From Candidatus Altimarinota bacterium (GTDB lineage: Bacteria; Patescibacteriota; Gracilibacteria; JBDHUY01): a stretch of DNA of 63,010 nt. Below are positions 1-10,788 of the stretch, piece after piece (positions within the stretch are counted from its first letter, which is position 1; each line of letters opens with the position of its first letter). Position numbers and translations under genes: made by a program. The DNA is taken from the NCBI GenBank assembly GCA_039809385.1, contig JBDHUY010000013.1, positions 1 through 63,010 of the forward strand, in the 5' to 3' direction. The notes beneath the pieces are model-generated. The model saw nothing but the letters and a program-made list of their open reading frames with translations. It was not told the DNA's origin and did not search any database.

Positions 1-1441
1 TAGGAAATGTCTTTGTTGGCTCGCCCTCTGCGAGGGCTCGCCAGCCGATTTTAAGCGCAAATTGGAATTTTTTATCTTTCAAAATGAAGTTCGAGCCGAT
101 ATTTTTTAGGAATGCTCGGATTTCTTGATTGTCGCTTCGCGACAAAAGAATTTTGGCTTGGCTACTGGCTAAAATCATTTCTTTCATCGGTTCGAGCCAA
201 TTATTTCCTTTTTGTTCAAAATCTTTTATTTTCTGTTGAATATCCAGCTTCTCGTTGAGAAGTTTTTGTTTTTTCTGCTGATATTCCTCTGGCTCAATGC
301 CTTTTCCGCCAATAAACAGATCAAGTAAATTCTCGGTTTTGGCTTCGATTTCTGTTTTCTTGGTTTGGAGATTTTGAACAAAAACTTTCGTTTCTTCTTT
401 TGCCTGTTCCCGTTCTTTGTCTATCTCGGCAAGCATATTTTTTGCCCAGTCGTCAGGCAAAGAAACTTTTTGAATAATCGCTTTCATCTGTTCAACGAGA
501 TTTTCTTCCCGCAAATATTTTTCATTACAAGGTTGCTTTTTCTTGGTGCAACGATAATAGTGATGTCCTTTTTGCTTTTCGGCAGTTATGAGGCAGTCGC
601 AATTTCCGCATTTCATCAAACCAGAAAAAGCAAATTCGTGCCTTCGCTTGCGTTTCTTTTTTCCTCGATTGCTCATTACTTGTTGAACAGAATCAAAAAG
701 TTTCTTGGAAATAATTGGCTCGTGCGTTCCATCATAGATTTCACCGTTGAAAGAAAATACACCGTAGTAAATCGGATTTTGCAAAAGTCGCTGGACACAG
801 GAAACCGAAAGAACATTGCCTTTGTAGCTTCTTAGCCCCGCTTGATCCAAAATTTTAGCAAGGGCTTTTAGGGTATATTCGCCAGTTGCGTAAAGTTCAA
901 ATGCTTTTTTGATAAATGGTGCTTTTTCACTATCAATATCAATCGCCCTTGTTTTTGGATTATTGGAATATCCAAGCGGGGCAAAATTTGGCCAAATTCC
1001 TTTTCGCAGTTTTGCTCTATGCCCTCGTTTAATATTCTCACTTAAATTGTCGATATAATATTTACTTTGGCCAAAGGCAATGTTCATCATGAATTTCCCT
1101 TGTGGTGTGCTATCAAACCAGAATGTTGGAAACTTCAAATCTAAAATCTTTCCTGTGTCCAGCAGATAAATGATTTTGCCTCCGTCTATTGAATTTCTAG
1201 CCAGTCGATCCGGATGCCAAGCCAAAATTCCTTGGGCTTCACCCCTTTCAATCCGAGCAAGCATTTCGCCGAACACAGTTCGGCCAGGTTCTTTGGCAGT
1301 TTTTGCCTCGCAAAGCGAGGCGACGATTTCAAGTTTTTCTTTGGCGGCAAATTCTTTTAGCTCAGCAAGCTGAGCTTCAATACTTAAAACTTGTCTTTCT
1401 TCGCTGTCTGTTGATTTTCGAGTGTAGATAAAATATTTCAT
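1..1441 (-). CDS. Large serine recombinase (resolvase + recombinase + Zn-ribbon + coiled coil), 3' end beyond window
   Basis: Manual translation from ATG at 1441: MKYFIYTRKSTDSEERQVLSIEAQ (catalytic YxRxS), WHPDRLARN, SENIKRG, PLGY, GTHEPIIS, FSGLMKCGNC...YYRC...C. Frame stays open to base 1 (...WRALAEGEPTKTFP). Missing from the ORF track because no stop lies in the window. Confidence 0.95.
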   Translation of the reverse strand, partial: MKYFIYTRKSTDSEERQVLSIEAQLAELKEFAAKEKLEIVASLCEAKTAKEPGRTVFGEMLARIERGEAQGILAWHPDRLARNSIDGGKIIYLLDTGKILDLKFPTFWFDSTPQGKFMMNIAFGQSKYYIDNLSENIKRGHRAKLRKGIWPNFAPLGYSNNPKTRAIDIDSEKAPFIKKAFELYATGEYTLKALAKILDQAGLRSYKGNVLSVSCVQRLLQNPIYYGVFSFNGEIYDGTHEPIISKKLFDSVQQVMSNRGKKKRKRRHEFAFSGLMKCGNCDCLITAEKQKGHHYYRCTKKKQPCNEKYLREENLVEQMKAIIQKVSLPDDWAKNMLAEIDKEREQAKEETKVFVQNLQTKKTEIEAKTENLLDLFIGGKGIEPEEYQQKKQKLLNEKLDIQQKIKDFEQKGNNWLEPMKEMILASSQAKILLSRSDNQEIRAFLKNIGSNFILKDKKFQFALKIGWRALAEGEPTKTFP

Positions 1442-1506
1442 AGTTATCCCTTAAAAATTAAAAATGAAAATTCGGGAAGCCCGCTTTTGGCCAGCCCCTT
1501 CGGGGC

Positions 1507-1702
1507 AAAGATAAAAAATTCCAATTTGCGCTTAAAATCGGCTGGCGAGCCCTCGCAGAGGGCGAGCCAACAAAGACATTTCCTAACTGGCGGTGTGCGT
1601 TCGAAAAAATTCGAACTGATTTCGCCCAAAATTTGTAGGGCGGGCGGAATTCCCCCCAGCCCCCCCCTTCCGCCCGCCCGCAGAAGCGACCCTTTCGAAT
1701 TG
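1507..1702. repeat. Internal inverted copy of the joined element ends (putative attP copy)
   Basis: 1507-1585 is the exact reverse complement of 1-79. 1587-1702 is the reverse complement of 5309-5423 with about 2 mismatches and 1 indel. Confidence 0.95.
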
Positions 1703-1863
1703 AAAAACTGCCAAAGAACCTGAAAAAATATCGGCTCGAACTTCATTTTGGGCCAAAAGCGGGCTTCCCTCATTTTTAATTTGATTGATTTCATAAAATT
1801 TGTTAGTATATTTATGAAGGGTTAAATAAGCACCCATACTAATACTATCATACTTAGGAAACT

Positions 1864-2079
1864 ATGAAAAGTCAAAACGATAACGAAACAATTGGGGATA
1901 AGATAAAACAGCTTAGAAACAAGCAGGGATTAACGCAGGACGAATTAGCGAGAAAATCCGACCTTCCCTATACAACACTGACCAAGATTGAAACAAATGT
2001 TATTACTAAGCCGACCATTCAAACTGTAGTAAAAATAGCCAAAGGACTTGGCGTAAGTCTTGATGATTTAATGAAATAA
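1864..2079 (+). CDS. XRE-family HTH regulator (C/controller-like protein)
   Basis: IGDKIKQLRNKQGLTQDELARKSDLPYTTLTKIE...PTIQTVVKIAKGLGVSLDDL; directly upstream of the RM gene. Confidence 0.92.
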   Translation: MKSQNDNETIGDKIKQLRNKQGLTQDELARKSDLPYTTLTKIETNVITKPTIQTVVKIAKGLGVSLDDLMK

Positions 2080-2083
2080 AAAT

Positions 2084-5000
2084 ATGTCTAATATTGATAT
2101 ATTAATCAATAAAATAAATGGGAAGTATTTTAAATACTATATCTCTAAGCGAGATACTATTTCGAGTGAAGAAGATTTAAGAGTCGCATTTTCATCACTA
2201 ATTGACATAATCTCAAAAGAAAATAACGTAGCTATTCTCGAAGAACACCACGAGTATAGCGTGTTAAAAGGACGCATTGACTCACTTTATGGCGAAGTGA
2301 TAGTTGAATATAAAGAACCCCATTATCTAGATAGCTCTAATAGTTCTTCCAAAAATATGAAAGCTATTGAGCAAGTACAACGTCATATTGTCGGAATAGA
2401 GAAAAGACAGAAAATTAATATTAATAGATATTTAGGTGTAATTTTTGATGGATACAAGATAGTTTTTGTTAGAAGAAGAAATAATTTATGGGATGTAGAA
2501 AGCCCAGTGGATGTCAGTGAGAAATCATTTAAATTGCTTCTGCAAAGACTTTTTTCTATTGGCATACAGGGCAAGGCCTTAATTATCGACAATTTAATTA
2601 AAGATTTTAGTATCGTCTCAGATGATACTATCGATGATGTAAAGACATTGTTGGTCAATTTTGTAAAAAATGATAAGGGTAAGATCAATTTATTATTTGA
2701 ACAATGGAAGATTCTTTTCAGGGAAGTTTGCGGATATGATTTTGATACAAAAAAAATTGAAATTAAGGAACTCGCTAAAACTTTTCGAATAGAAAGTGAG
2801 GTTGATGACTTACCACGAATAATATTTGCTATCCAGACATATTATGCGCTCTTTATAAAATTACTTGGGGCTGAAACACTAACTTATTTCCGCCATAGGG
2901 ACAGGAGCTTCATCTCATCTTTAAATAAAGATAATCTTGAGCATAGAATAACATCTTTAGAAAGTGGAGAAATTTTTAGGCTGGAAGGTGTAAACAACTT
3001 CAACGAAGGAGACTTCTTTAGCTGGTATTTATTGTGTTGGAATAGTGAAATAAAAAACACAGTTCAAAAAATATCTACCAAACTTAAAGAATATGATTTT
3101 AGTTCACTAAATTTGGAACCTAAGGAGGCCAAAGACCTTATCAAGAATATTTATCATTACCTTTTGCCACAAAAACTAAGACACTCATTAGGAGAGTACT
3201 ATACTCCAGATTGGTTAGCAGAATTTTTAGTAAAAAAACTTGATATCGATTTTTCTAAAAAAATTAGAGTATTAGACCCCACCTGTGGTTCAGGCACCTT
3301 CTTATCAATCCTTATAGAAAAGATAAAAGAAAATAACGATATTTTAGAAAAAAACAAGTTAATTACCTGTTTAAACAGTATAGTTGGTATAGACTTGAAT
3401 CCCTTAGCAGTAATTTCTGCAAAAACAAATTATTTAATAGCCTTGTCTGAATACTTGAATGACATCGAGGAAGGCGGAATTGATATTCCCATTTATTTAA
3501 GCGATTCCTTATTAGCGCCACTTGAATTTAAAACAAAACATAAAACATACTACGCTTTACCAACTAAAGTTGGCATATTTAAAATCCCAGTTTCTTTAAT
3601 TCAAAATAAACAATTAGATATATTTTTAAATCTTGTAATCGCCTGTATTGATGTTGAGCTAAGTGTTGAGAAATTTAAGATTAAATATACTAGCCTTGAA
3701 TTGAATCTTTCTAATGCTGATAATGATTTGGTTTATGAGTTTTACAATACACTTTTAGAATTACAGAAAAAAGGACTTAACGGTATCTGGGGTAAAATCA
3801 TTAAGAATATATTTGCACCCGCTTTCTTTGATAATTTTGATTATATTATTGGTAATCCGCCTTGGATTAATTGGCAAAATCTACCAGAAGATTATAGAGA
3901 TTCTATAAAAAAATATTGGGAAGATTATAAAGTATTTTTGCATAAAGGATTAAAAGCAAGATTAGGTTCATCTCACGATGATATTAGCGTACTTTTAACA
4001 TACGTTGTAATGGATAAGTATCTAAAAAAAGATGGGCTTCTTGGTTTTGTACTTCCTCAGAATTTATTACAATCGTCGGGGGGTGGCGATGGATTTCGTA
4101 GGTTTCAAATTAAAGACGAAATACAAGTTAAGGCAGTTGTCGTAGATGATTTCGTTGCGGTGCAACCATTTGCAGACATTGGTGCTTCAAATAAGCCAGC
4201 GACTATAATTTTACAAAGAAATAATGTAACTACATATCCAGTCCCTTATCGTAGGTGGTACAAAAAAAGCAAAGGTACAATACCTTCTGATCAGCCATTA
4301 AGTGCTGTTCTTCCTTTATTACAGAATGAGGAACTTGTAGCAGAGCCAATAAAAAACAAGACCCCAGGCTCCTCTTGGCTTATAGCGGACAATAAAAAGA
4401 TAAAAGTATTAAAAGCCTTAGTTGGTCATTCAGATTATCGTGCTAGAAAAGGCGTAGATTTTAGTCTTAATGGCTTGTATTGGGGAAAAATTTCTAGGTC
4501 AAAGATTAAAGGGAATATAGTATTTGAAAATGCATCAGATATCGGAAGAAAAAAACTAAAGCCCTATCAAATACCTCTTGAAAAGGATGTTATTTTTCCA
4601 ATACTTCGCGGGAAAGATATAGAGAGGTGGTTAGCTGAGCCCAGCTATATGGCAGTGATTCCTTATGATAATAGTGGTAAATGCATCCGGACAGAAGATT
4701 TAAAAAATGAATATCCAAATACTTACAAATTTTTTTACAAAACTGACGAGGAAATTACGCGATGGCTAGATACAAGAGGAATTTATCAAAAACACCTTAA
4801 ATTAGCCAATATACCACTACATGGTTTATATGATATTGGAGAATATACCTTTAGCAAATACAAGGTTGTTTGGAAAGCATTAGCTAGTGGAATGATAGCA
4901 AGTGTTATAAACTCTATCGATTATGGTTTATTGGGTAATAAGTTGGTTATTCCTGATCATAATGTCTTAATGGTTCCTTTAGATACGGCAGAAGAAGCCC

Positions 5001-5239
5001 ATTATTTGTGCGGCATATTGAATAGTGAAATTGTCAATGAATTTGTCATTGCTTATATTTCTTGGTTTTATTCAAGCCATATTTTAGAACATATTAATAT
5101 TCCGAGTTTTAATGTAAATAATCGAAATCATCGAAGAATCAGCGAGCTATCACAAAAAGCACATTTGCATAAAAAATTAACAGAGTTTGAGCAAGAAGAA
5201 CTTAATAATATAACACTGGCAATTTTAGAAAAAGATTAA
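2084..5239 (+). CDS. Type IIG/IIC fused restriction endonuclease-N6-adenine methyltransferase
   Basis: N-terminal RIDSLYGEVIVEYK (PD-(D/E)xK-like), GEYYTPDWLA, motif I VLDPTCGSGTFL, motif IV IIGNPPW, C-terminal TRD-like region (YKVVWK...YLCGILNS). AT-rich. Confidence 0.9.
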   Translation: MSNIDILINKINGKYFKYYISKRDTISSEEDLRVAFSSLIDIISKENNVAILEEHHEYSVLKGRIDSLYGEVIVEYKEPHYLDSSNSSSKNMKAIEQVQRHIVGIEKRQKININRYLGVIFDGYKIVFVRRRNNLWDVESPVDVSEKSFKLLLQRLFSIGIQGKALIIDNLIKDFSIVSDDTIDDVKTLLVNFVKNDKGKINLLFEQWKILFREVCGYDFDTKKIEIKELAKTFRIESEVDDLPRIIFAIQTYYALFIKLLGAETLTYFRHRDRSFISSLNKDNLEHRITSLESGEIFRLEGVNNFNEGDFFSWYLLCWNSEIKNTVQKISTKLKEYDFSSLNLEPKEAKDLIKNIYHYLLPQKLRHSLGEYYTPDWLAEFLVKKLDIDFSKKIRVLDPTCGSGTFLSILIEKIKENNDILEKNKLITCLNSIVGIDLNPLAVISAKTNYLIALSEYLNDIEEGGIDIPIYLSDSLLAPLEFKTKHKTYYALPTKVGIFKIPVSLIQNKQLDIFLNLVIACIDVELSVEKFKIKYTSLELNLSNADNDLVYEFYNTLLELQKKGLNGIWGKIIKNIFAPAFFDNFDYIIGNPPWINWQNLPEDYRDSIKKYWEDYKVFLHKGLKARLGSSHDDISVLLTYVVMDKYLKKDGLLGFVLPQNLLQSSGGGDGFRRFQIKDEIQVKAVVVDDFVAVQPFADIGASNKPATIILQRNNVTTYPVPYRRWYKKSKGTIPSDQPLSAVLPLLQNEELVAEPIKNKTPGSSWLIADNKKIKVLKALVGHSDYRARKGVDFSLNGLYWGKISRSKIKGNIVFENASDIGRKKLKPYQIPLEKDVIFPILRGKDIERWLAEPSYMAVIPYDNSGKCIRTEDLKNEYPNTYKFFYKTDEEITRWLDTRGIYQKHLKLANIPLHGLYDIGEYTFSKYKVVWKALASGMIASVINSIDYGLLGNKLVIPDHNVLMVPLDTAEEAHYLCGILNSEIVNEFVIAYISWFYSSHILEHINIPSFNVNNRNHRRISELSQKAHLHKKLTEFEQEELNNITLAILEKD

Positions 5240-5308
5240 GAATTTGCCAGCCAAACTGGGTGAAGCCCAGAGTTCCGCTTTTAGCGGAACGAAAAACTTG
5301 AAATCGTC

Positions 5309-5423
5309 CAATCCGAAAGGGTCGCTTCTGCGGGCGGGCGGAAGGGGGGTCTGGGGGGAATTCCGCCCGCCCTACAAATTTTGGGCGAAATCAGTTCGAA
5401 TTTTTTCGAACGCACACCGCCAG
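5309..5423. repeat. Right-end repeat of the element (inverted relative to 1587-1702)
   Basis: About 115-nt GC-rich reverse-complement match, with internal hairpins GGGCGG...CCGCCC and GTTCGAA-TTTT-TTCGAAC. Confidence 0.95.
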
Positions 5424-5518
5424 AATCCAATCGAGTTATTTGAGCTATACAAACTTCAACAGGCATAGGAGCTGTACTTTTTATCCATATATTCAAAATT
5501 ACGTTCATAAAGATTATC

Positions 5519-5956
5519 ATGAAAATCTATATTACCGCCCCTTTTCAAGGAAACAAAAATCGAGACCAGATCGAAAATATGTGTGCAATCGTCAACAAAT
5601 CCGGTTTTGAAGATTTTTGTTTTGTACGCGATGTCGAAAATTACCAGAAGGTCTTTCATAATGCTCATGAACTAATGCAACGAGCCAAAGAAGAGATCGA
5701 AAAATGTGACGCATTGCTAATCGACTATGACGGTCCGGCCAGCGGTCGTATGATAGAACTTGGCATCGCGTATGCCTTGCAGAAAAAAATCATGTTGATA
5801 ACCCACAAAGGAACTACTGTAAAAGAAACCGTAACTGGAGTTACGAATGCAATCATTGAATACGAAACTCTCGAAGATATTGTTGAACCGATGACAAAAA
5901 TTCTGTCAGATTGGACAAGAAATGAGAATATTGCTCAAGACCTTAGCAGAACTTAG
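5519..5956 (+). CDS. Nucleoside 2-deoxyribosyltransferase-family protein
   Basis: MKIYITAPF...IEKCDALLI...SGRMIELGIAYA family motifs. Confidence 0.8.
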   Translation: MKIYITAPFQGNKNRDQIENMCAIVNKSGFEDFCFVRDVENYQKVFHNAHELMQRAKEEIEKCDALLIDYDGPASGRMIELGIAYALQKKIMLITHKGTTVKETVTGVTNAIIEYETLEDIVEPMTKILSDWTRNENIAQDLSRT

Positions 5957-6044
5957 TCATAGAGATTCTTCATAATGAGTTTGCTTTAACAACAAGCGAG
6001 TATTTTTCTGTCTTACCACTTTCACGCTAAAAAATAGATAATAT

Positions 6045-6346: not shown

Positions 6347-8284
6347 TTATAAATTCCCAAACGCTTCCAGAAACTTATACAGAATCTTACCGATCTCGGC
6401 CCGATTGACAAACGAATTCGGCTTGAACGTTCCGTCGGGATTCCCGCTGATCATCCCCAAAGCTTTGGCTTTACAAATATCGCGAACATATTTGTTACTG
6501 CTTGAAACATCCGAAAAACAACTTCCGGGAGCATCGGACGTATCGATACCAAAGACATCCATTGCAAATCCGATCACCTGTCCGCGCGTAGCCGCATTGT
6601 TCAGACCGAAATTATCGTCGGTCAGAATGCGATAGTTTTTAAAGAGCACTACCTGATAAAACTTCTTGGCCCAGTGTGACATAGTATTCTTTCCGACATC
6701 CTGACTCTCGACCGACGGATTGGCAAAGAGCGTAGAGCCTTCGCCTTTATCGGACGCATTCAATAACATTTTGAACAGCTCGGCGATCGTAACGTTATTG
6801 GCGGGTCTAAAAAGACCAAGAAAATTTCCGGCAGCATCTTTATAACCGCCGACAATCCCCAAATCCCTGAGTTTACGCACAAACGGAAAGAACCAGGTAC
6901 TGTCGTCGACATCGGTAAAGTTCAGCAGATTCTTGCCGAATTTGAGATTGACGGCTTCCTGGGTCGCTTTGTTGACCGAGGCGGTAAGCTCGGAAAGAGC
7001 TTTTTGCAATCGCTCGCTGGTAAGCGTCGGATCCACAAAGAGCGTCTTCATGTCCGACAATTTATTTTCCAAATCGCCATACTGGTCTTTATACCACTGA
7101 TAGGCTCGGATACTACGCAGGGTTTTGATTCCCTCGGTAACGTCGATCCCCAGCGCGTCTCTCAGCTGGAGTAACGTATCTTCCAGATCGAATATCCTTT
7201 CGATCAGACGATTATGCCGATCGACCAGACCAGCCAGAACCCGATAGGGATTATTATAGAGACTTTCTATGTGATAACCATTACCATTACTGTCCAGTTT
7301 TTCCGTCAGATCGATGGATCGAAGTTCGTCGAGCGTAAATGTTTTTGTGACAGAATCGTTCACCTGCAAAGTGACTTGGGTGACTTCTTCGGGAGCATAT
7401 AGCAGAAGTCCGTCGTAGTGATTAAGGGTTTGGGTCGAAAAAGAGACATCGCTGGAAGCCGGACAACCGTTTACGATTGAGCCGCTCCCCGACATATTAA
7501 ACGTACAATCGGTCGAGGTAGCGGGCGTCACTTTGTCGTTTGCATCGAAAAAAAGTGTCCGGACCAACCGTCCGCCGCTACCACTAAAGGTGACCTTCCC
7601 TTGCCATTCTTTTTTGGTAGTTGTAAATATCGTTTCGAGTTGGGGAATCTTGCCCCACGTCACTGCGAAAAGTACCGGCCATTGATCATCAGTACCAATA
7701 TTTTGAATCTGGACTTTATGTCCCAGCGTATCGGTCGTAAATGTTGTGTTAATATTGCGCAGCTCTTTGACGGTATAAATCTTCGTCACTTCGCCGGTAC
7801 GGATCTTTACTTCCTGATTGAGAGACTTCGGGTACAATTTAACCTTAACCGCATCAAAGGTTTGGGAGATTGTCGAACTCCACTCCAAGCGGGCAAGGTT
7901 TGCAGGATCGCGGGGAAGAACAGTATCTTCGGGTTCGAAGAAAACGGTTTTTTTCAAGAAAGCCCGTCCCTGTCCCTGCATGTCGACATACCCGTCAAAG
8001 TTAATCGTGGAGCCGGTAGCGGTACGTTCAAAATAGCCCCATTTGACCATGAGATTGATCGGTCTCAAATCTTCGTTGAAGCCGACACCCTCGCAAATAC
8101 CGGGGTAGGCAATCGGAGTCCCGGTAGCCATGCAGTCGTTGCTGTACGTTACTCCGTTGACGCCGCACACCGGCAGATATTCTTTGGTACAAATGAGCTC
8201 CGCGTTACTTTGAGAAAGGGGCATGGTGAATATTATGCCGCCGAAAAGCATAAAAACCAGAAGCGAGAGAAACGATCGTTTCAT
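6347..8284 (-). CDS. Secreted SLH-domain protein with N-terminal Kazal-type domain
   Basis: Signal peptide; CTKEYLPVCGVNGVTYSNDC...C (Kazal-like); C-terminal FTDVDDSTWF, GLFRPANNVTIAE, GNPDGTFKPNSFVNRAE (SLH). Confidence 0.85.
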   Translation of the reverse strand: MKRSFLSLLVFMLFGGIIFTMPLSQSNAELICTKEYLPVCGVNGVTYSNDCMATGTPIAYPGICEGVGFNEDLRPINLMVKWGYFERTATGSTINFDGYVDMQGQGRAFLKKTVFFEPEDTVLPRDPANLARLEWSSTISQTFDAVKVKLYPKSLNQEVKIRTGEVTKIYTVKELRNINTTFTTDTLGHKVQIQNIGTDDQWPVLFAVTWGKIPQLETIFTTTKKEWQGKVTFSGSGGRLVRTLFFDANDKVTPATSTDCTFNMSGSGSIVNGCPASSDVSFSTQTLNHYDGLLLYAPEEVTQVTLQVNDSVTKTFTLDELRSIDLTEKLDSNGNGYHIESLYNNPYRVLAGLVDRHNRLIERIFDLEDTLLQLRDALGIDVTEGIKTLRSIRAYQWYKDQYGDLENKLSDMKTLFVDPTLTSERLQKALSELTASVNKATQEAVNLKFGKNLLNFTDVDDSTWFFPFVRKLRDLGIVGGYKDAAGNFLGLFRPANNVTIAELFKMLLNASDKGEGSTLFANPSVESQDVGKNTMSHWAKKFYQVVLFKNYRILTDDNFGLNNAATRGQVIGFAMDVFGIDTSDAPGSCFSDVSSSNKYVRDICKAKALGMISGNPDGTFKPNSFVNRAEIGKILYKFLEAFGNL

Positions 8285-8786: not shown

Positions 8787-10106
8787 CTATTTGATAAAGC
8801 TCTTTCCGTCAAAATTGATCGTATCTTCGCCGCCATATTGAAAGAACGTATGTCGGGCCGAAAATCCGCTGTCATAGACAAGATCAATGGCATAGTTGGC
8901 TATTTTATACGTTCCCGAGGCTTCGCCATTCAGACTGCCATAGCCTCCGGCATAGGGTCCGTCGGTAGTGAAACCGCTGAAATTAGTCGTGGAAAAGGTA
9001 CCGTCGCTGCGAAACGTAATTTGCTGTTCGCTGCCGATACCGGTACTGCCGGTCACGACATAGTTACTGCGATGCCACGTTCCGTTTAGCGTAAGGCTGC
9101 CGGCCCCGCCGGCTTTGAACAGGGTGATGTTGCCGTTCAACTTGATTCCGCCGTTATTGAGAGAATAAGTATTCGAGGTTCCGTCGGGGAAGGTGACGGA
9201 TATTTGATTGCCGGAAACACTGTACGAACCGCAAGTATTCGTATCGCAATATCCCTGCACGTTGCCGTCTGAGGGCAGCGAGTTATACATTTTCCCGTTG
9301 CTTAAGAAAACCCAGTTGTATTGGATAAGACGATTTACATAAGAACCTCCTCCTGGTTGAGAATAATTGGGTTGAAATTGCAGTTTCGATTCGACACCCG
9401 CGTAAATACCGGCAAAGCCTTTCTGGTCGAACGGCGTGATACTCGAGAGCGAAGCAGAGCCGGAAGAAGATCCGGCGGTAGAAGAAGCGTTCAATTCAGC
9501 ATAGGTACGCGAATCTTTGGTCGTGACTCCGGCGATAATACGATACATGACTTCGGCTACCTCGCCGCGCGTGACCTTTTGATCAAAGGCATTAACAGTT
9601 GTAGGGATAGCACGGAGCTGCTCCAGAACGAGCGTATATGCCTGATACCACGGATCGGTAGCGGGAAGATCGATCGTGGCGTCAGATGCCTGAGCCGTGG
9701 CTACGATAATTTTGGCCATCTCGACAAAAGTGATCGGATTGGCAGGCTTGAAAGTGCCATCGGGGTATCCCTTGATAATATTTTTGGCGCGGGCGAAACA
9801 AACGTACGGAGAGAACCAGTCGGAATCTTTTACATCCGGAAAATCTCGGCAGGAAAATCCGTCGGCCTGACCGGGCAGTTCGGCTTCGACCATGATCTTG
9901 GTAAATTCGGCCCGATTGATGATTCGTCCGGGACCGAAGGTACCGTCGGGATACCCTTTTACGATCCCCTGCTCCTGCACAAAGTTAATCGCATCGTTAT
10001 TGGGATGAGAAGACGGGACATCCGGGAAAGCGGCATAAACACTCGAAGGAATAATGGCGAACAACAACAAAATGACAAGAATAGATTGCCATAGTTTTTG
10101 TTTCAT
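8787..10106 (-). CDS. Secreted SLH-domain protein with C-terminal duplicated beta-rich (lipocalin-like) domain
   Basis: Likely start MKQKLWQ at 10106 with a signal peptide; FPDVPSSHP..GYPDGTFGPGRIINRAE and GYPDGTFKPANPIT SLH repeats. Confidence 0.85.
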   Translation of the reverse strand: MKQKLWQSILVILLLFAIIPSSVYAAFPDVPSSHPNNDAINFVQEQGIVKGYPDGTFGPGRIINRAEFTKIMVEAELPGQADGFSCRDFPDVKDSDWFSPYVCFARAKNIIKGYPDGTFKPANPITFVEMAKIIVATAQASDATIDLPATDPWYQAYTLVLEQLRAIPTTVNAFDQKVTRGEVAEVMYRIIAGVTTKDSRTYAELNASSTAGSSSGSASLSSITPFDQKGFAGIYAGVESKLQFQPNYSQPGGGSYVNRLIQYNWVFLSNGKMYNSLPSDGNVQGYCDTNTCGSYSVSGNQISVTFPDGTSNTYSLNNGGIKLNGNITLFKAGGAGSLTLNGTWHRSNYVVTGSTGIGSEQQITFRSDGTFSTTNFSGFTTDGPYAGGYGSLNGEASGTYKIANYAIDLVYDSGFSARHTFFQYGGEDTINFDGKSFIK

Positions 10107-10200
10107 ACGGAAAACATCAAAGAATAATAGGATTTGTCTAGATGACAAAACACAGTAACTGTATCGAAACGATCCTCGAAAGTAAAGCCAAGAACCGTTT

Positions 10201-10788
10201 TTATGAAAAAGGAAATTTGAGCTTTTCAATAGCTTGTTTGGTGCGATTAGTCAATTCCTTCACCGTATCGGCGCGGCAGATGATTTGTAACATTCCTTGA
10301 TGCGAGATAAGAGAAAGTCCTGATATATCGCTTGATTGTACAATATTTCCCACACGGCCTATCAAACTTTGCAACTCTTGGTCGGACAATGCGGATGGGA
10401 TAGGCAGGTTTACCGCCCATTGCAACGGAGTAAAAGACTTATCCATATTATCCAGCCTATTAGGTCCGCCTACAACTCCGCTTATGGTAGCTAAGAACTC
10501 TTCAATCCATGTAGCATATTTTTCCAGTAAAGCATGCGCGTTTTGTACACCTTGAAATCGTTGAAAAGTGAAGCGGTATGAGAATTTTCCGGAAGAATCC
10601 TGGACTGTATTATACGATTGGAGATTCTTAAAAGCAGTTACCAGGTCGTTTAACCGGCTGGGATCCGGCAGAAATTCGATGGGGAAATGTACTTCCGGTC
10701 CGGGGATATGCTGAATATACTCGGGAGTCTCTCCTGTTTCGGGAGGTTTATCCCCACCGCCGCCCTGGAATACTTTGAAATTTGCCAT
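10201..10788 (-). CDS. Hypothetical protein
   Basis: 195-aa ORF filling the intergenic space, no recognisable motif. Confidence 0.65.
   Translation of the reverse strand: MANFKVFQGGGGDKPPETGETPEYIQHIPGPEVHFPIEFLPDPSRLNDLVTAFKNLQSYNTVQDSSGKFSYRFTFQRFQGVQNAHALLEKYATWIEEFLATISGVVGGPNRLDNMDKSFTPLQWAVNLPIPSALSDQELQSLIGRVGNIVQSSDISGLSLISHQGMLQIICRADTVKELTNRTKQAIEKLKFPFS

Follow-up and report, generated by a model that had tools for sequence, protein, structure and literature searches.

An inverted copy of the joined ends within a serine recombinase island of a Gracilibacteria genome

We found that an apparent integrative island at the start of a Candidatus Altimarinota contig carries, within itself and in inverted orientation, a copy of its own two ends already joined. 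Hundreds of related islands have the same layout, which marks this junction copy (1507–1702) as deliberate and conserved, and no accident. Our preferred reading, to which we give a probability of roughly 0.4, is that the copy would act as a single-stranded DNA self-splint, aligning both ends of the island as a nicked attP. The window is the whole stretch of DNA that was analysed, 63,010 nucleotides of contig JBDHUY010000013.1 (GenBank assembly GCA_039809385.1).

The island, its ends and the junction copy

Bases 0–5423 read as an integrative island run by a large serine recombinase (LSR), with its insertion point at the 3′ end of tRNA-Ser(GGA) and the crossover within CCGCCAG. Three things set its boundaries: where the tRNA ends, the repeat of the core, and the junction copy inside the island. 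The main features are:

1–79, minus strand: segment a, which encodes the last 26 residues' worth of codons of the recombinase and is the P′ (element-side) arm of attL
2–1441, minus strand: large serine recombinase gene, 3′-open in the window; integrated form 494 aa, joined form 497 aa
1507–1702, plus strand: inverted pre-joined attP junction copy, consisting of the reverse complement of 1–79, the core (1586–1593) and the reverse complement of 5309–5423
1783–1863, no strand: divergent control region separating the HTH gene from the recombinase leader
1864–2079, plus strand: Xre-type HTH gene, 71 aa (HTH_3, 4e-18)
2084–5239, plus strand: cargo RM gene, a 1051-aa fused N6-methyltransferase/restriction-type protein, type IIG-like
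5309–5423, plus strand: segment E, the right end and P arm of attR, terminating in the core CCGCCAG (5417–5423)

The left flank was found on contig C8, whose end equals window 1–121 exactly (121 nt overlap). The terminal part of C8 holds tRNA-Ser(GGA), ending in CCGCCA and followed by GTTAGG, just as the first-pass annotation of this DNA had predicted for the sequence left of base 1. The 3′ end of this tRNA is 2 nt ahead of window base 1, and the crossover core CCGCCAG plus a T stand directly left of that base. A third copy of the right-end repeat with no tRNA, which had been named as the arrangement that would refute the attP interpretation, was looked for on C8 and is not what lies there. 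The sequence common to attL and attR is CCGCCAG, 7 nt. The order contains just one other genome, and the flanking gene at 5519–5956 occurs in none of the 20 relatives searched, which offered no attB or empty site. A tRNA-like reading of the right end was dropped, as ARAGORN reports no tRNA or tmRNA in the window. Rfam gave only two sub-threshold snoRNA chance matches, and no family matched. Segment E does include a GC-rich hairpin, and its antisense strand codes for the final 14 residues and stop of the joined-form recombinase.

The reverse complement of 1507–1702 is the right end (5309–5423), a T and the left end (1–79), in that order. A repeat search gave the left arms (1–79 and 1507–1585) as 79 nt of perfect complementarity (79/79), and the right arms as an 80-nt, 99% match (1587–1666 and 5344–5423) extended by a second one (1626–1702 and 5309–5385). 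Aligned in full, the reverse complement of 1587–1702 and 5309–5423 are identical in 113 of 116 columns, differing by two substitutions and one 1-nt indel, all three of which sit more than 72 nt from the crossover. Base 1586, the single base between the arms, complements the T found on C8 immediately before window base 1. On these identities (79/79 and 113/116) the first-pass reading of 1507–1702 as the excision (attP) junction in inverted form is right, and its peptide was reproduced exactly, the translation of 1507–1638 being KDKKFQFALKIGWRALAEGEPTKTFPNWRCAFEKIRTDFAQNL*. Within the 1.87-Mb assembly the 196-nt copy has four matches in all, at its own position, at the right end, at the first bases of the window and at the end of C8, so it is not a dispersed repeat.

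The read data consulted were Logan contigs of four runs (X1, X2, X5 and X6), which break at repeat borders. Junctions 1585/1587 and 1702/1703 are each bridged by contigs of two runs, and attR (5423/5424) by that of one run (X1 record 8); the other bridging contigs are X2 record 11, X6 record 26 and X2 record 12. At junction 1506/1507 the contigs extend just 30 letters across, one below the bridging criterion. The runs that hold the sequence best may be the source sample.

The recombinase matches Resolvase (PF00239, 3.2e-19), Recombinase (PF07508, 3.5e-17) and Zn_ribbon_recom (PF13408, 5.9e-8), all above curated cut-offs, and residues R8, K9, S10 and T11 are nearly invariant in a 30-sequence alignment. 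Its domains are of the serine type only, and none belongs to tyrosine recombinase chemistry. The integrated ORF ends in NWRREGDSNPRDHC within antisense tRNA (494 aa), and the joined-form ORF ends in NWRCAFEKIRTDFAQNL (497 aa). The final 11–14 residues differ between the two states because the ORF crosses the attachment site, which had correctly been placed within the 3′ end of the recombinase gene. It had further been proposed that the joined C-terminus is made only in the joined or circular form. That form does carry it; so do tandem arrays (7 cases), where the right-end sequence comes from the neighbouring element and gives a joined-type C-terminus. Among homologues the usual ending consists of antisense-tRNA residues (..WRRGRDSNPR..); a conserved joined-type tail is seen in a minority.

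Besides the recombinase, the island holds only the HTH and RM genes; it has no replication or transfer genes, and no directionality factor was recognisable among its genes. The cargo protein matches N6_Mtase (3e-15), Eco57I (1e-12) and MmeI_Mtase (2e-6), and is predicted to have methyltransferase/restriction activity. On the minus strand of the scanned region (1–6000) the best sigma-70-like site is at 1875–1847 (TTGACT-17-TATGAT, 10/12), a putative promoter extending 12 nt into the HTH gene. The same hexamers are present in about half of the 35 relatives listed, in all of which a divergent gene starts at the same position beside the leader.

The leader patchwork and its conservation

The 290-nt leader (1493–1782) is composed entirely of stretches that are complementary to six sites elsewhere in the element. 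The feature is larger than the junction copy that was first described, with four further inverted patches (b, d, f and h) belonging to it:

80–107, no strand: patch b, within the recombinase gene and adjoining a; complementary to 1723–1750 (28 nt, 100%)
1285–1304, no strand: patch d, gene codons 46–52; complementary to 1703–1722 (20 nt, 100%)
1305–1321, no strand: hairpin e, with a 7-bp stem and 3-nt loop; in the coding region, codons 41–46
1322–1342, no strand: patch f, gene codons 33–39; complementary to the far-end stretch 5288–5308 (21 nt, 95%)
1461–1492, no strand: patch h, 19–50 nt ahead of the start codon; complementary to 1751–1782 (32 nt, 88%, including a 19-nt exact match)
1493–1506, no strand: hairpin i, with a 5-bp GC stem and 4-nt loop; occupies the gap between h and the junction copy
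1703–1782, plus strand: patch block, made of d* (1703–1722), b* (1723–1750) and h~* (1751–1782)
5288–5308, plus strand: patch f*, immediately adjoining the right-end arm

The block patches d*, b* and h~* are contiguous with one another and with the junction copy, and hairpin e exactly occupies the gap that separates patches d and f. Patches b, d, f and h are thereby contiguous with hairpins e and i, with zero spacer. Since each patch abuts the next patch or a small hairpin, one strand of the element can fold. The geometry is that of two perfect four-way junctions, the first formed by helices a, b and h with hairpin i, and the second by helices d, f and E with hairpin e. The full fold, as predicted from sequence complementarity, is pseudoknotted.

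The recombinase family is a large and widespread one, with at least 589 confirmed matches in one-genome-per-species contigs, and relatives come mostly from MAGs titled Patescibacteria. Upstream sequence of 330 nt or more was available for 102 related gene copies. In 88 of them this sequence includes an inverted copy of the gene's own 3′ end, and in 56 the far-end copy adjoins it. Patch b was found in 63 of the 102 relatives, d in 54 and h in 58; the contiguity of b with d was seen in 37, of h with b in 39 and of d with E in 36. A counterpart of patch f begins no more than 1 nt from the far-end arm in 11 of 17 loci examined. The zero-spacer complementarity is in this way conserved across relatives at the sequence level. 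Arm lengths across the family are 64–160 nt and 86–334 nt, and arms match within an element at 98.4% (399 mismatches in 25,459 positions), though the recombinases diverge to 52% identity. Junction overlaps are 3–10 nt in 21 of the 29 relatives measured, absent in 7 and 18 nt in one. A distant subfamily (52–56%) has nested patches in the order E, a, b, x, y, z, w and then the ATG, the last of which cover the start codon and pair with conserved codons. Of 401 genomes sampled from the phylum, 30 (counting G000, the genome of the window) match a 73-nt leader-block query (1703–1775, reverse strand), some of them over just a part of the query or at the b region inside the gene. As a specificity control, the second LSR of the same genome (37% identity) has no such repeats. 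An artefact (MDA chimera or graph mis-join) was ruled out by the same layout appearing across many independent assemblies.

Patches of 20–28 nt mostly track synonymous change; the leader copy of patch d follows most synonymous differences among elements, a minority showing isolated internal mismatches. Hairpin e keeps at least 6 of its 7 Watson-Crick pairs in 62 of 105 unique relatives. Its 28 distinct 17-mers are Watson-Crick in 427 of 441 pairs, the stem being kept by compensatory changes that include synonymous third positions. Pair 3, which joins two such positions, is C-G in 44, T-A in 31 and mixed in 9. Compensatory changes of this kind inside an ORF point to selection on nucleic-acid structure. 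Hairpin i differs in sequence among relatives and keeps its place (in at least 27 of 102 by a crude test). Whole-arm mismatches number 110 of the G·T and 95 of the A·C kind, which shows no bias towards wobble pairs on either strand; the mismatches of hairpin e are G·U-compatible in 7 cases and A·C in 4. An A·C excess in patches b and d (64 versus 30 by a fixed-window count) was discarded, since many of the mismatches lie at patch edges and several internal ones recur among related loci, and nothing was drawn from it.

The self-splint and competing readings

The first-pass annotation had offered a splint, a decoy or second att site, and inversion as possible roles for the copy, and of these the anatomy appears to fit the splint best. 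A linear single strand of the integrated island would arise, most plausibly on DNA uptake by a competent cell. Its left end (1–79) and right end (5309–5423) would pair side by side on the internal copy, the paired ends forming a nicked double-stranded attP, and the strand would fold to a dumbbell in which the recombinase gene and the cargo are two loops. Trimming of flaps and ligation by host enzymes could then regenerate the circle, and with it the true attP and the full-length recombinase gene, with no need of a directionality factor. That host flap processing and ligase turn a linear taken-up strand into an integration-competent circle is a more doubtful proposition than the splint itself, and precise trimming and ligation on such a fold are assumed. 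The anatomy, its conservation and the covariation are observations; the fold in vivo, the DNA nature of the strand and every enzymatic step are what we infer from them.

Three points suggest that the strand is DNA rather than RNA: the arms have no wobble bias; the fold needs the far end (E and f), which oppositely transcribed cargo cuts off when the element is integrated; and the arms far exceed the att sites of serine integrases, reportedly 40–50 bp. The setting may suit such a route, as natural competence has been reported for Saccharibacteria (PMC10187176) and relaxases are described as rare in the group (109 homologues in 103 genomes; PMC12102498). Against the self-splint, no single-stranded or circular form was seen in the Logan contigs, a type of data that does not reveal circle junctions. 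The leader is probably transcribed, lying as it does downstream of a conserved promoter-like region and ahead of the recombinase start codon, and the start-codon-covering patches of the distant subfamily would look like RNA-level translational control. If the conserved HTH protein were an unrecognised directionality factor, as it could be, no excision-free route would be needed.

The position of the leader and the start-codon patches belong equally to a reading at the RNA level, in which the recombinase mRNA would begin with the patchwork as its 5′ untranslated leader, whose antisense patches pair with the coding region and 3′ end. In the joined or tandem form the leader would pair also with E and f, which then lie 3′ of the stop codon. 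Such pairing would limit translation or mark the transcript for cleavage, and it could act as a sensor of the element's state, integrated or joined. We regard this as unlikely, although it has more in its favour than the position of the leader between the best minus-strand promoter-like site and the start codon. The promoter-like region and divergent HTH start recur in the 35 relatives listed, the nested patches of the 52–56% subfamily reach over the start codon, and a joined-form transcript from h~ to f would hold every pairing partner. The mismatches nevertheless show no G·U-compatible excess over A·C, whether in the long arms or in hairpin e, and riboregulation needs far less than perfect duplexes of 100–330 bp. 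The mRNA of a singly integrated element would be left with no partner for E and f, the h patch of the window element stops 19 nt before the ATG and so off the ribosome-binding site, and no Rfam family matches. Alternatively the copy may be an operator or decoy, with recombinase dimers on the internal attP repressing their own synthesis or being sequestered from the real ends. An exact attP does lie between the promoter-like site and the gene, and autoregulation through att-overlapping promoters is described as a paradigm for a tyrosine integrase (PMC2951348). We consider this improbable: it leaves unexplained patches b, d, f and h, the pair of hairpins that fill the spacers, the covariation within the ORF, and arms several times longer than a 40–50-bp site.

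Use of the copy as a recombination substrate is, in our view, quite improbable. It would serve either as a second functional attP or as inverted repeats that switch the orientation of the recombinase gene (through 1–79 and 1507–1585) or of the cargo (through 1587–1702 and 5309–5423). The repeats are long and perfect enough, and one of 155 gene copies (L105) has the order gene, a*, E*, d*, b* that is expected from an a/a* flip. L105 is a 1.9-kb contig with a coverage of 2.6 by its record name, and it could be a mis-join through the 87-nt repeat. Routine inversion, as the first-pass annotation had envisaged, was thus not seen; nor were inversion joints found in runs X1 and X2, where depth is 3–6 and where Logan contigs cannot reveal circle junctions or minor inversion isomers. 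Joints in run X5 of 47 to 1353 (on opposite strands) and of 1809 to 5291 come from 90–95% relatives. As for a second att site, no locus is arranged as integration through the internal copy predicts, the standard abutment of a tRNA 3′ end being found in 102 of the 155 gene copies, and every resolved leader has the right-end copy E, and no tRNA, upstream of the left-end copy a. Serine integrases are moreover reported not to recombine att pairings other than attP with attB (PMC3783163). In two decayed relatives, L204 and L198, the rearrangements fall exactly at a/a*, d/d* and f/f*, and record past exchanges at a/a* and f/f*. With the recombinase gone from the rearranged relatives, such events have the look of damage rather than of a switch.

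The same two loci bear on whether the arrangement has any function at all. An old inverted-duplication relic or repair scar kept by gene conversion, or else an assembly artefact, seems to us barely credible, even though the reverse complement of 1507–1750 (80–107, 1285–1304, 5309–5423, T, 1–79) has the order of a circular copy minus two deletions. Ordinary gene conversion can homogenise long repeats and could hold the long arms identical, so arm identity alone is no proof of a pairing function. Such a relic is hard to reconcile with a layout that recurs in 88 of the 102 relatives, across many independent assemblies and at protein identities as low as 52%, with short patches that largely track synonymous change, with hairpins e and i that covary, and with contigs of other runs that bridge the junctions. 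The destructive rearrangements in L204 and L198 show the repeats to be costly, and their retention in intact elements therefore argues for function.

We also looked for carriers of the splint that lack a recombinase. For 75 of the 267 tRNAs examined, the downstream flank recurs as an inverted copy, always 1300–1750 nt from the tRNA and never closer than 1300 nt; the test is a weak one, because the loci had been chosen for having a recombinase. The 29 leader-block loci taken from the sampled genomes comprise 10 that match the recombinase over more than 400 residues, 2 with fragments of it and 17 with no match in the stretch covered, 6 of the 17 being short contigs or contig ends. When seven loci were enlarged, four had no recombinase in 12 kb and three had truncated or fragmentary genes. 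Leader-block loci that have no intact recombinase look decayed, unlike mobilisable mini-elements, and that no recombinase-less derivative with the splint turned up in these sets counts against the self-splint.

Known systems and significance

The island shares with LSR elements and prophages of the phiC31, Bxb1 and SPbeta type the Resolvase, Recombinase and Zn-ribbon architecture, and site-specific insertion with a few bp of junction identity (7 here, mostly 3–10 in relatives). It differs from them in targeting the 3′ end of a tRNA gene, in an ORF that crosses attP, in having no recognisable directionality factor, and in its internal inverted attP and patchwork leader. Small serine DNA-invertases (Hin, Gin, Pin) are about 190 aa. 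The present enzyme has 494 or 497 aa with recombinase and zinc-ribbon domains, in place of a small size and C-terminal HTH, and its locus is flipped in only one of 155 copies, in contig data blind to minor isomers. According to the 2014 Islander paper, tRNA genes were not among the known targets of serine-family integrases (PMC4383910). Full-text searching found no literature on an internal inverted attP with a patchwork leader, or on tRNA-targeting serine integrases in this group; supplementary tables (e.g. PMC12884075, 10.1101/2020.12.28.424599) may hold some.

Integration of phage Mx8 and the fusellovirus SSV is described as altering or splitting the 3′ end of the integrase ORF (PMC4383910). 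Mx8 IntP and SSV resemble our case in that integration changes the C-terminal coding of the integrase (here 494 versus 497 aa), and differ in that their enzymes are tyrosine recombinases and ours is a serine recombinase. We know of no internal second junction copy described for Mx8 or SSV. In CTX-phi attP(+) and integron attC, one-strand inverted sequences pair into a duplex site, as a with a* and E with E* would here. Those systems use tyrosine recombinases and short hairpins inside one site. In the present island a distant internal template would bring together both ends of the 5.4-kb element by pairing, the recombinase is a serine one that needs duplex sites, and the single-stranded stage is only proposed. 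IS10 and IS50 limit their transposase by fold-back inhibition of its mRNA, with short pairing at the ribosome-binding region, and in Tn4451 (TnpX) a junction promoter is assembled at the joint of the circular form. The first would resemble our island, on the RNA-level reading, in using element-encoded complementarity to control recombinase expression, and the second resembles it in having a gene feature completed only in the circular form. Fold-back over the translation start may have a counterpart in the patches of the distant subfamily that cover the start codon; in the window element the nearest patch is 19 nt upstream of the ATG. Different from both is the full 196-nt joint permanently copied upstream of the gene, and different from Tn4451 is that the circular form completes an ORF 3′ end and no promoter. 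The Vibrio SE is an integrative element whose circularisation is described as strand-biased (PMC9345347), and it likewise reaches a circular copy by an unconventional strand-level route; it is not known to carry an internal junction copy.

The family is unusual in three respects: a serine recombinase targets the 3′ (CCA) end of many different tRNA genes; the recombinase ORF is completed differently in the integrated and joined states; and a conserved copy of the joined ends takes part in a predicted fold, with two perfect four-way junctions, that constrains even coding sequence. Under any reading, attP, attB, attL and attR are now defined for an integrase family with differing tRNA specificities, and the repeat layout explains assembly breaks at these loci. 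Should the RNA or operator reading be true, it would be a new coupling of recombinase expression to integration state. Serine integrases are prized as strictly one-way in the absence of a helper protein, and how helper-less elements exit the chromosome is an open problem. If the self-splint is true, these islands would have a serine-integrase life cycle with no donor excision or directionality factor, suited to transformable hosts. The single-stranded DNA fold would then provide a simple design principle for self-circularising DNA cargo, and a new route for the horizontal transfer of islands in naturally competent, mostly uncultured bacteria.

Element ends and the inverted junction copy

The assembly comprises 1.87 Mb in 26 contigs, and the window is contig C13, starting at that contig's first base. 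A repeat search of the window recovered inverted arms at 1-79 and 1507-1585 (79 nt, 100% complementary) and at 1587-1666 and 5344-5423 (80 nt, 99%), the latter continued by 1626-1702 and 5309-5385. On alignment, the reverse complement of 1587-1702 is identical to 5309-5423 at 113 of 116 columns; the three differing columns all fall within a G-run or past it, at a distance of >72 nt from the crossover. The first-pass annotation had read the reverse complement of 1507-1702 as the right end of the element fused to its left end, and these arms bear it out; the C-terminal peptide it proposed is matched exactly on translating 1507-1638. Across the whole assembly the 196-nt copy has four matches and no more: the copy itself, the right end, the start of the window and the end of contig C8.

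Window 1-121 is identical to the final 121 nt of C8 (G000:C8:97130-97250, G000 being the window's own genome), and ARAGORN places a tRNA-Ser(GGA) directly before this overlap. Its 3′ end, ...CTCTCCGCCA, is followed by GT and then by window base 1 (TAGGAAATG...); a tRNA ending in CCGCCA and then GTTAGG had been predicted left of base 1, and C8 supplies it to the letter. The two contigs can be joined through the exact 121-base overlap, and the assembly break is inside the element's inverted repeats.

Junction sequences (slash, junction point)
attL: tRNA...CCGCCAG/TTAGG
attR: ...CACACCGCCAG/AATCC
Internal copy, reverse-complemented: ...CACACCGCCAG/TTAGG

CCGCCAG is common to both real junctions, attL and attR; joined to each other, they give exactly the sequence of the internal copy. 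An empty target site was not found, the flanking gene (5519-5956) occurring in 0 of the 20 relatives searched.

The gene reading out of the left end is the following.

1441 to beyond base 1, minus strand: recombinase ORF with Resolvase, Recombinase and Zn_ribbon_recom domains

This ORF is that of a large serine recombinase (LSR). Integrated and read through attL, it has 494 aa and ends in NWRREGDSNPRDHC and a stop codon within the antisense tRNA; read across the joined ends, it has 497 aa and ends in NWRCAFEKIRTDFAQNL and a stop codon. The remaining island holds a divergent control region and two genes, one for an Xre-type HTH protein of 71 aa and one for a methyltransferase/restriction fusion of 1051 aa; beyond 5423 lies an unrelated nucleoside deoxyribosyltransferase gene. 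A divergent gene start is found at the HTH position in 35 of 35 relatives, so an HTH gene seems to form part of the element's core module rather than its cargo. The control region between leader and HTH gene (1783-1875) recurs in 35 relatives and holds repeated GATA-containing motifs resembling operator half-sites. Just past the island, two large secreted-looking proteins are encoded on the minus strand (6347-8284, 645 aa; 8787-10229, 480 aa). The genome has a second LSR (G000:C3:177228-178664) with 37% identity to the island recombinase, and no comparable inverted repeats surround it at the contig C3 locus examined.

The recombinase family and its tRNA targets

Homologues number in the thousands at 60-95% identity, with 7693 of 8000 scored candidates at E ≤ 0.001. 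Their alignment shows two kinds of C-terminus: the majority form, ..WR(R/K)G(R/W)DSNPR.., is antisense tRNA acceptor and T-arm sequence, and the minority form is a conserved tail, W-R-x5-(I/V)-R-T-x-F-x2-N-P, that resembles the joined form of the window. We fetched 160 loci (80 of at least 589 confirmed matches in genome_contigs and 80 of 337 in metagenome_contigs) and counted the 155 gene copies that extend to the C-terminal region. The 3′ end of an opposite-strand tRNA gene adjoins 102 of these (Ser 71, Gln 10, Leu 6, Asn 5, and eight further types with 1-2 each); 20 run off the contig end and 33 are other cases. Seven of the latter are tandem arrays at one tRNA (loci L087, L109, L136, L106, L101, L049 and L073), where the outer element's recombinase gene continues into the inner one's right end and therefore has a joined-type C-terminus; several of the remaining cases have tRNA-like tails without an ARAGORN call. 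The suggestion that this C-terminus is made only in the joined or circular state thus fits the 497-aa joined ORF but needs qualifying for the arrays. At two loci (L080 and L106), a right-end sequence encoding CAFEKIRTDFAQNL and a stop codon, identical to that of the window, stands beside recombinases of a different subfamily (52-54% identity).

According to a passage of the 2014 Islander paper (PMC4383910), tRNA genes were not among the known targets of serine-family integrases, and a full-text literature search found no later description of the present family. The relatives are mostly in MAGs titled Patescibacteria. Four recombinases with 73-83% identity (P0014, P0034, P0039 and P0066) have the source names Nitrospira, Brocadia, Thermodesulfovibrionales and Saganbacteria, and some TPA bins with related recombinases are titled Gammaproteobacteria or Planctomycetia; such disparate names reflect either wide horizontal spread or mis-binned small contigs.

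Self-comparison of the loci revealed the junction copy as a near-universal pattern where there is enough upstream sequence. The gene's own 3′ end is repeated in inverted form (64-160 nt, usually 100%) at a distance of 50-250 nt upstream of the start codon. This copy abuts a second inverted one (86-334 nt), whose original lies kilobases upstream, at the element's other end. The 3′-end copy is carried by 88 of the 102 gene copies with at least 330 nt upstream (35 with too little were left out), and 56 of the 102 also show the abutting far-end copy, which can be counted only with the far end on the same contig. Coming from a single, simple exact-seed script, these counts are lower bounds, and they are not independent events, the loci being related to one another. 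The two copies overlap, in the core common to attL and attR, by 3-10 nt in 21 of 29 measured. Many related contigs start or end at these repeats, and thus this family may repeatedly cause contigs to break beside tRNA genes.

A patchwork leader, its predicted fold and the cost of repeats

On the + strand the order from 1 to 5423 is a b c d e f g h i a′ core E′ d′ b′ h~′ cargo f′ E, primes denoting reverse complements, and the series from a to E abuts with zero spacer bases.

Patches and hairpins of the element (+ strand)
1-79: a, left end; partner a′, 1507-1585
80-107: b; partner b′, 1723-1750
1285-1304: d; partner d′, 1703-1722
1305-1321: e, small perfect hairpin, codons 41-46 of the recombinase gene
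1322-1342: f; partner f′, 5288-5308
1461-1492: h; partner h~′, 1751-1782
1493-1506: i, small perfect hairpin
5309-5423: E, right end; partner E′, 1587-1702

Because the patches abut without spacer, one strand could form two junctions with zero unpaired bases: J1, where helices a:a′, b:b′ and h:h~′ would meet with hairpin i, and J2, where d:d′, f:f′ and E:E′ would meet with hairpin e. The long helix predicted from a:a′ and E:E′ is a double-stranded attP, one strand being the internal copy and the other both element ends meeting at the core, with the recombinase gene and the cargo as two loops. With the ends sealed it would be a dumbbell, topologically a circle without a knot; adding the b/d and h/f helices makes the predicted structure pseudoknotted.

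The geometry recurs in relatives with >57% identity: of the 102 gene copies with at least 330 nt upstream, 63 have b, 54 have d and 58 have h, and 37 have b contiguous with d, 39 have h contiguous with b and 36 have d contiguous with E. At least 27 have a hairpin filling the gap between a and h, as counted by a crude test that overlooks some cases. Of the 17 loci examined for the f patch, 11 have it beginning ≤1 nt from the arm at the far end; for no fewer than three of the remaining six (the window's own element, L035 and L087) an internal mismatch or indel displaces the script's exact match. The 52-56% subfamily has a nested, different order (E, a, hairpin, b, hairpin, then 3-4 patches of 11-22 nt), in which the final patches span the start codon and are complementary to conserved codons.

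Arm matching, patch tracking and hairpin e all appear to be evidence of selection on structure. Within an element the match between arms is 98.4% (474 arms, 25,459 positions, 399 mismatches), although recombinase identity falls as low as 52%. The 20-nt d and 28-nt b patches track most synonymous differences of their own gene, isolated internal mismatches occurring in a minority of the 49 distinct leader/gene pairs. Hairpin e has at least 6 of 7 Watson-Crick pairs in 62 of 105 unique sequences, with a paired fraction of 0.70 versus 0.15-0.50 in four shifted controls; its pair 3 joins two third positions, both synonymous, and reads C-G (44 sequences) or T-A (31), compared with T-G in 5 and C-A in 4. 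The 63 sequences with at least 5 pairs comprise 28 distinct 17-mers (427 of 441 pairs Watson-Crick), and amino acids also vary with the stem kept (ASLCEA, ASFQEA, DSLCES).

A further hairpin lies at 19-45 within arm a (codons for WRALAEGEP), some 20-45 nt away from the crossover. Both halves of this stem are altered in relatives whose protein reads WRARVAGEP here (window versus L130 and L127), which suggests covariation there too; the hairpin might belong to the site that the recombinase binds, or serve as a terminator of the tRNA gene. Just past the joined-form stop codon is a GC-rich hairpin with G-run loops (5329-5375 and 1635-1682), whose homopolymer runs are the sole location of differences between the window's two copies; similar GGGCGGGC...GCCCGCCC hairpins occur in right ends of relatives of both subfamilies.

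The repeats are costly to the element. A close relative from another genome, L204 (G098:C2), has a left arm identical to window 1-79 and reads tRNA, core, a, i′, h′, first 52 codons, d′, b′, h~′, as expected from an a/a′ exchange combined with a d′/d′ deletion, or else from a double template switch. At L198 (G077:C1) the cargo block is inverted and the recombinase is without its first 27 codons, consistent with an f/f′ inversion severing them; no second a′ copy was detected there. Both loci are decayed, with the recombinase lost, and no recombinase was found within 12 kb of the leader-block matches at L199, L200, L202 and L203.

Possible function of the fold

We tentatively propose, at a probability of roughly 40%, that the fold acts as a self-splint of single-stranded DNA. 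The leader could instead work as RNA: it sits between the best promoter-like site on the minus strand and the start codon, that site and the divergent HTH start are conserved in relatives, and patches overlap the start codon in the distant (52-56%) subfamily. Such a role is less likely, since the mismatches have no G.U-type bias (G.T 110 versus A.C 95 in the arms, 7 versus 4 in hairpin e) and the fold requires E and f from the far end, beyond cargo read in the opposite direction. The same two points lean toward DNA, as does the length of the arms, several times that of serine-integrase sites, put at 40-50 bp in published abstracts.

A second att site and an invertible cassette, both raised by the first-pass annotation, are very improbable, as integration through the internal copy was seen in no locus examined and only 1 of 155 gene copies is flipped. 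We consider an operator or decoy unlikely, and a fold with no function hardly credible. Given the points leaning toward DNA and the case against a second att site or switch, the self-splint is therefore preferred. Were the integrated island present as a linear single strand, its internal copy would align both ends as a flapped nick, which host flap removal and ligase could close into a circle; this closure would need no directionality factor and would restore attP together with the 497-aa gene. The setting for such a self-splint is plausible, because the relatives are mostly in MAGs titled Patescibacteria, natural competence is reported in Saccharibacteria (in the abstract of PMC10187176) and relaxases are described as rare in the group (in a passage of PMC12102498).
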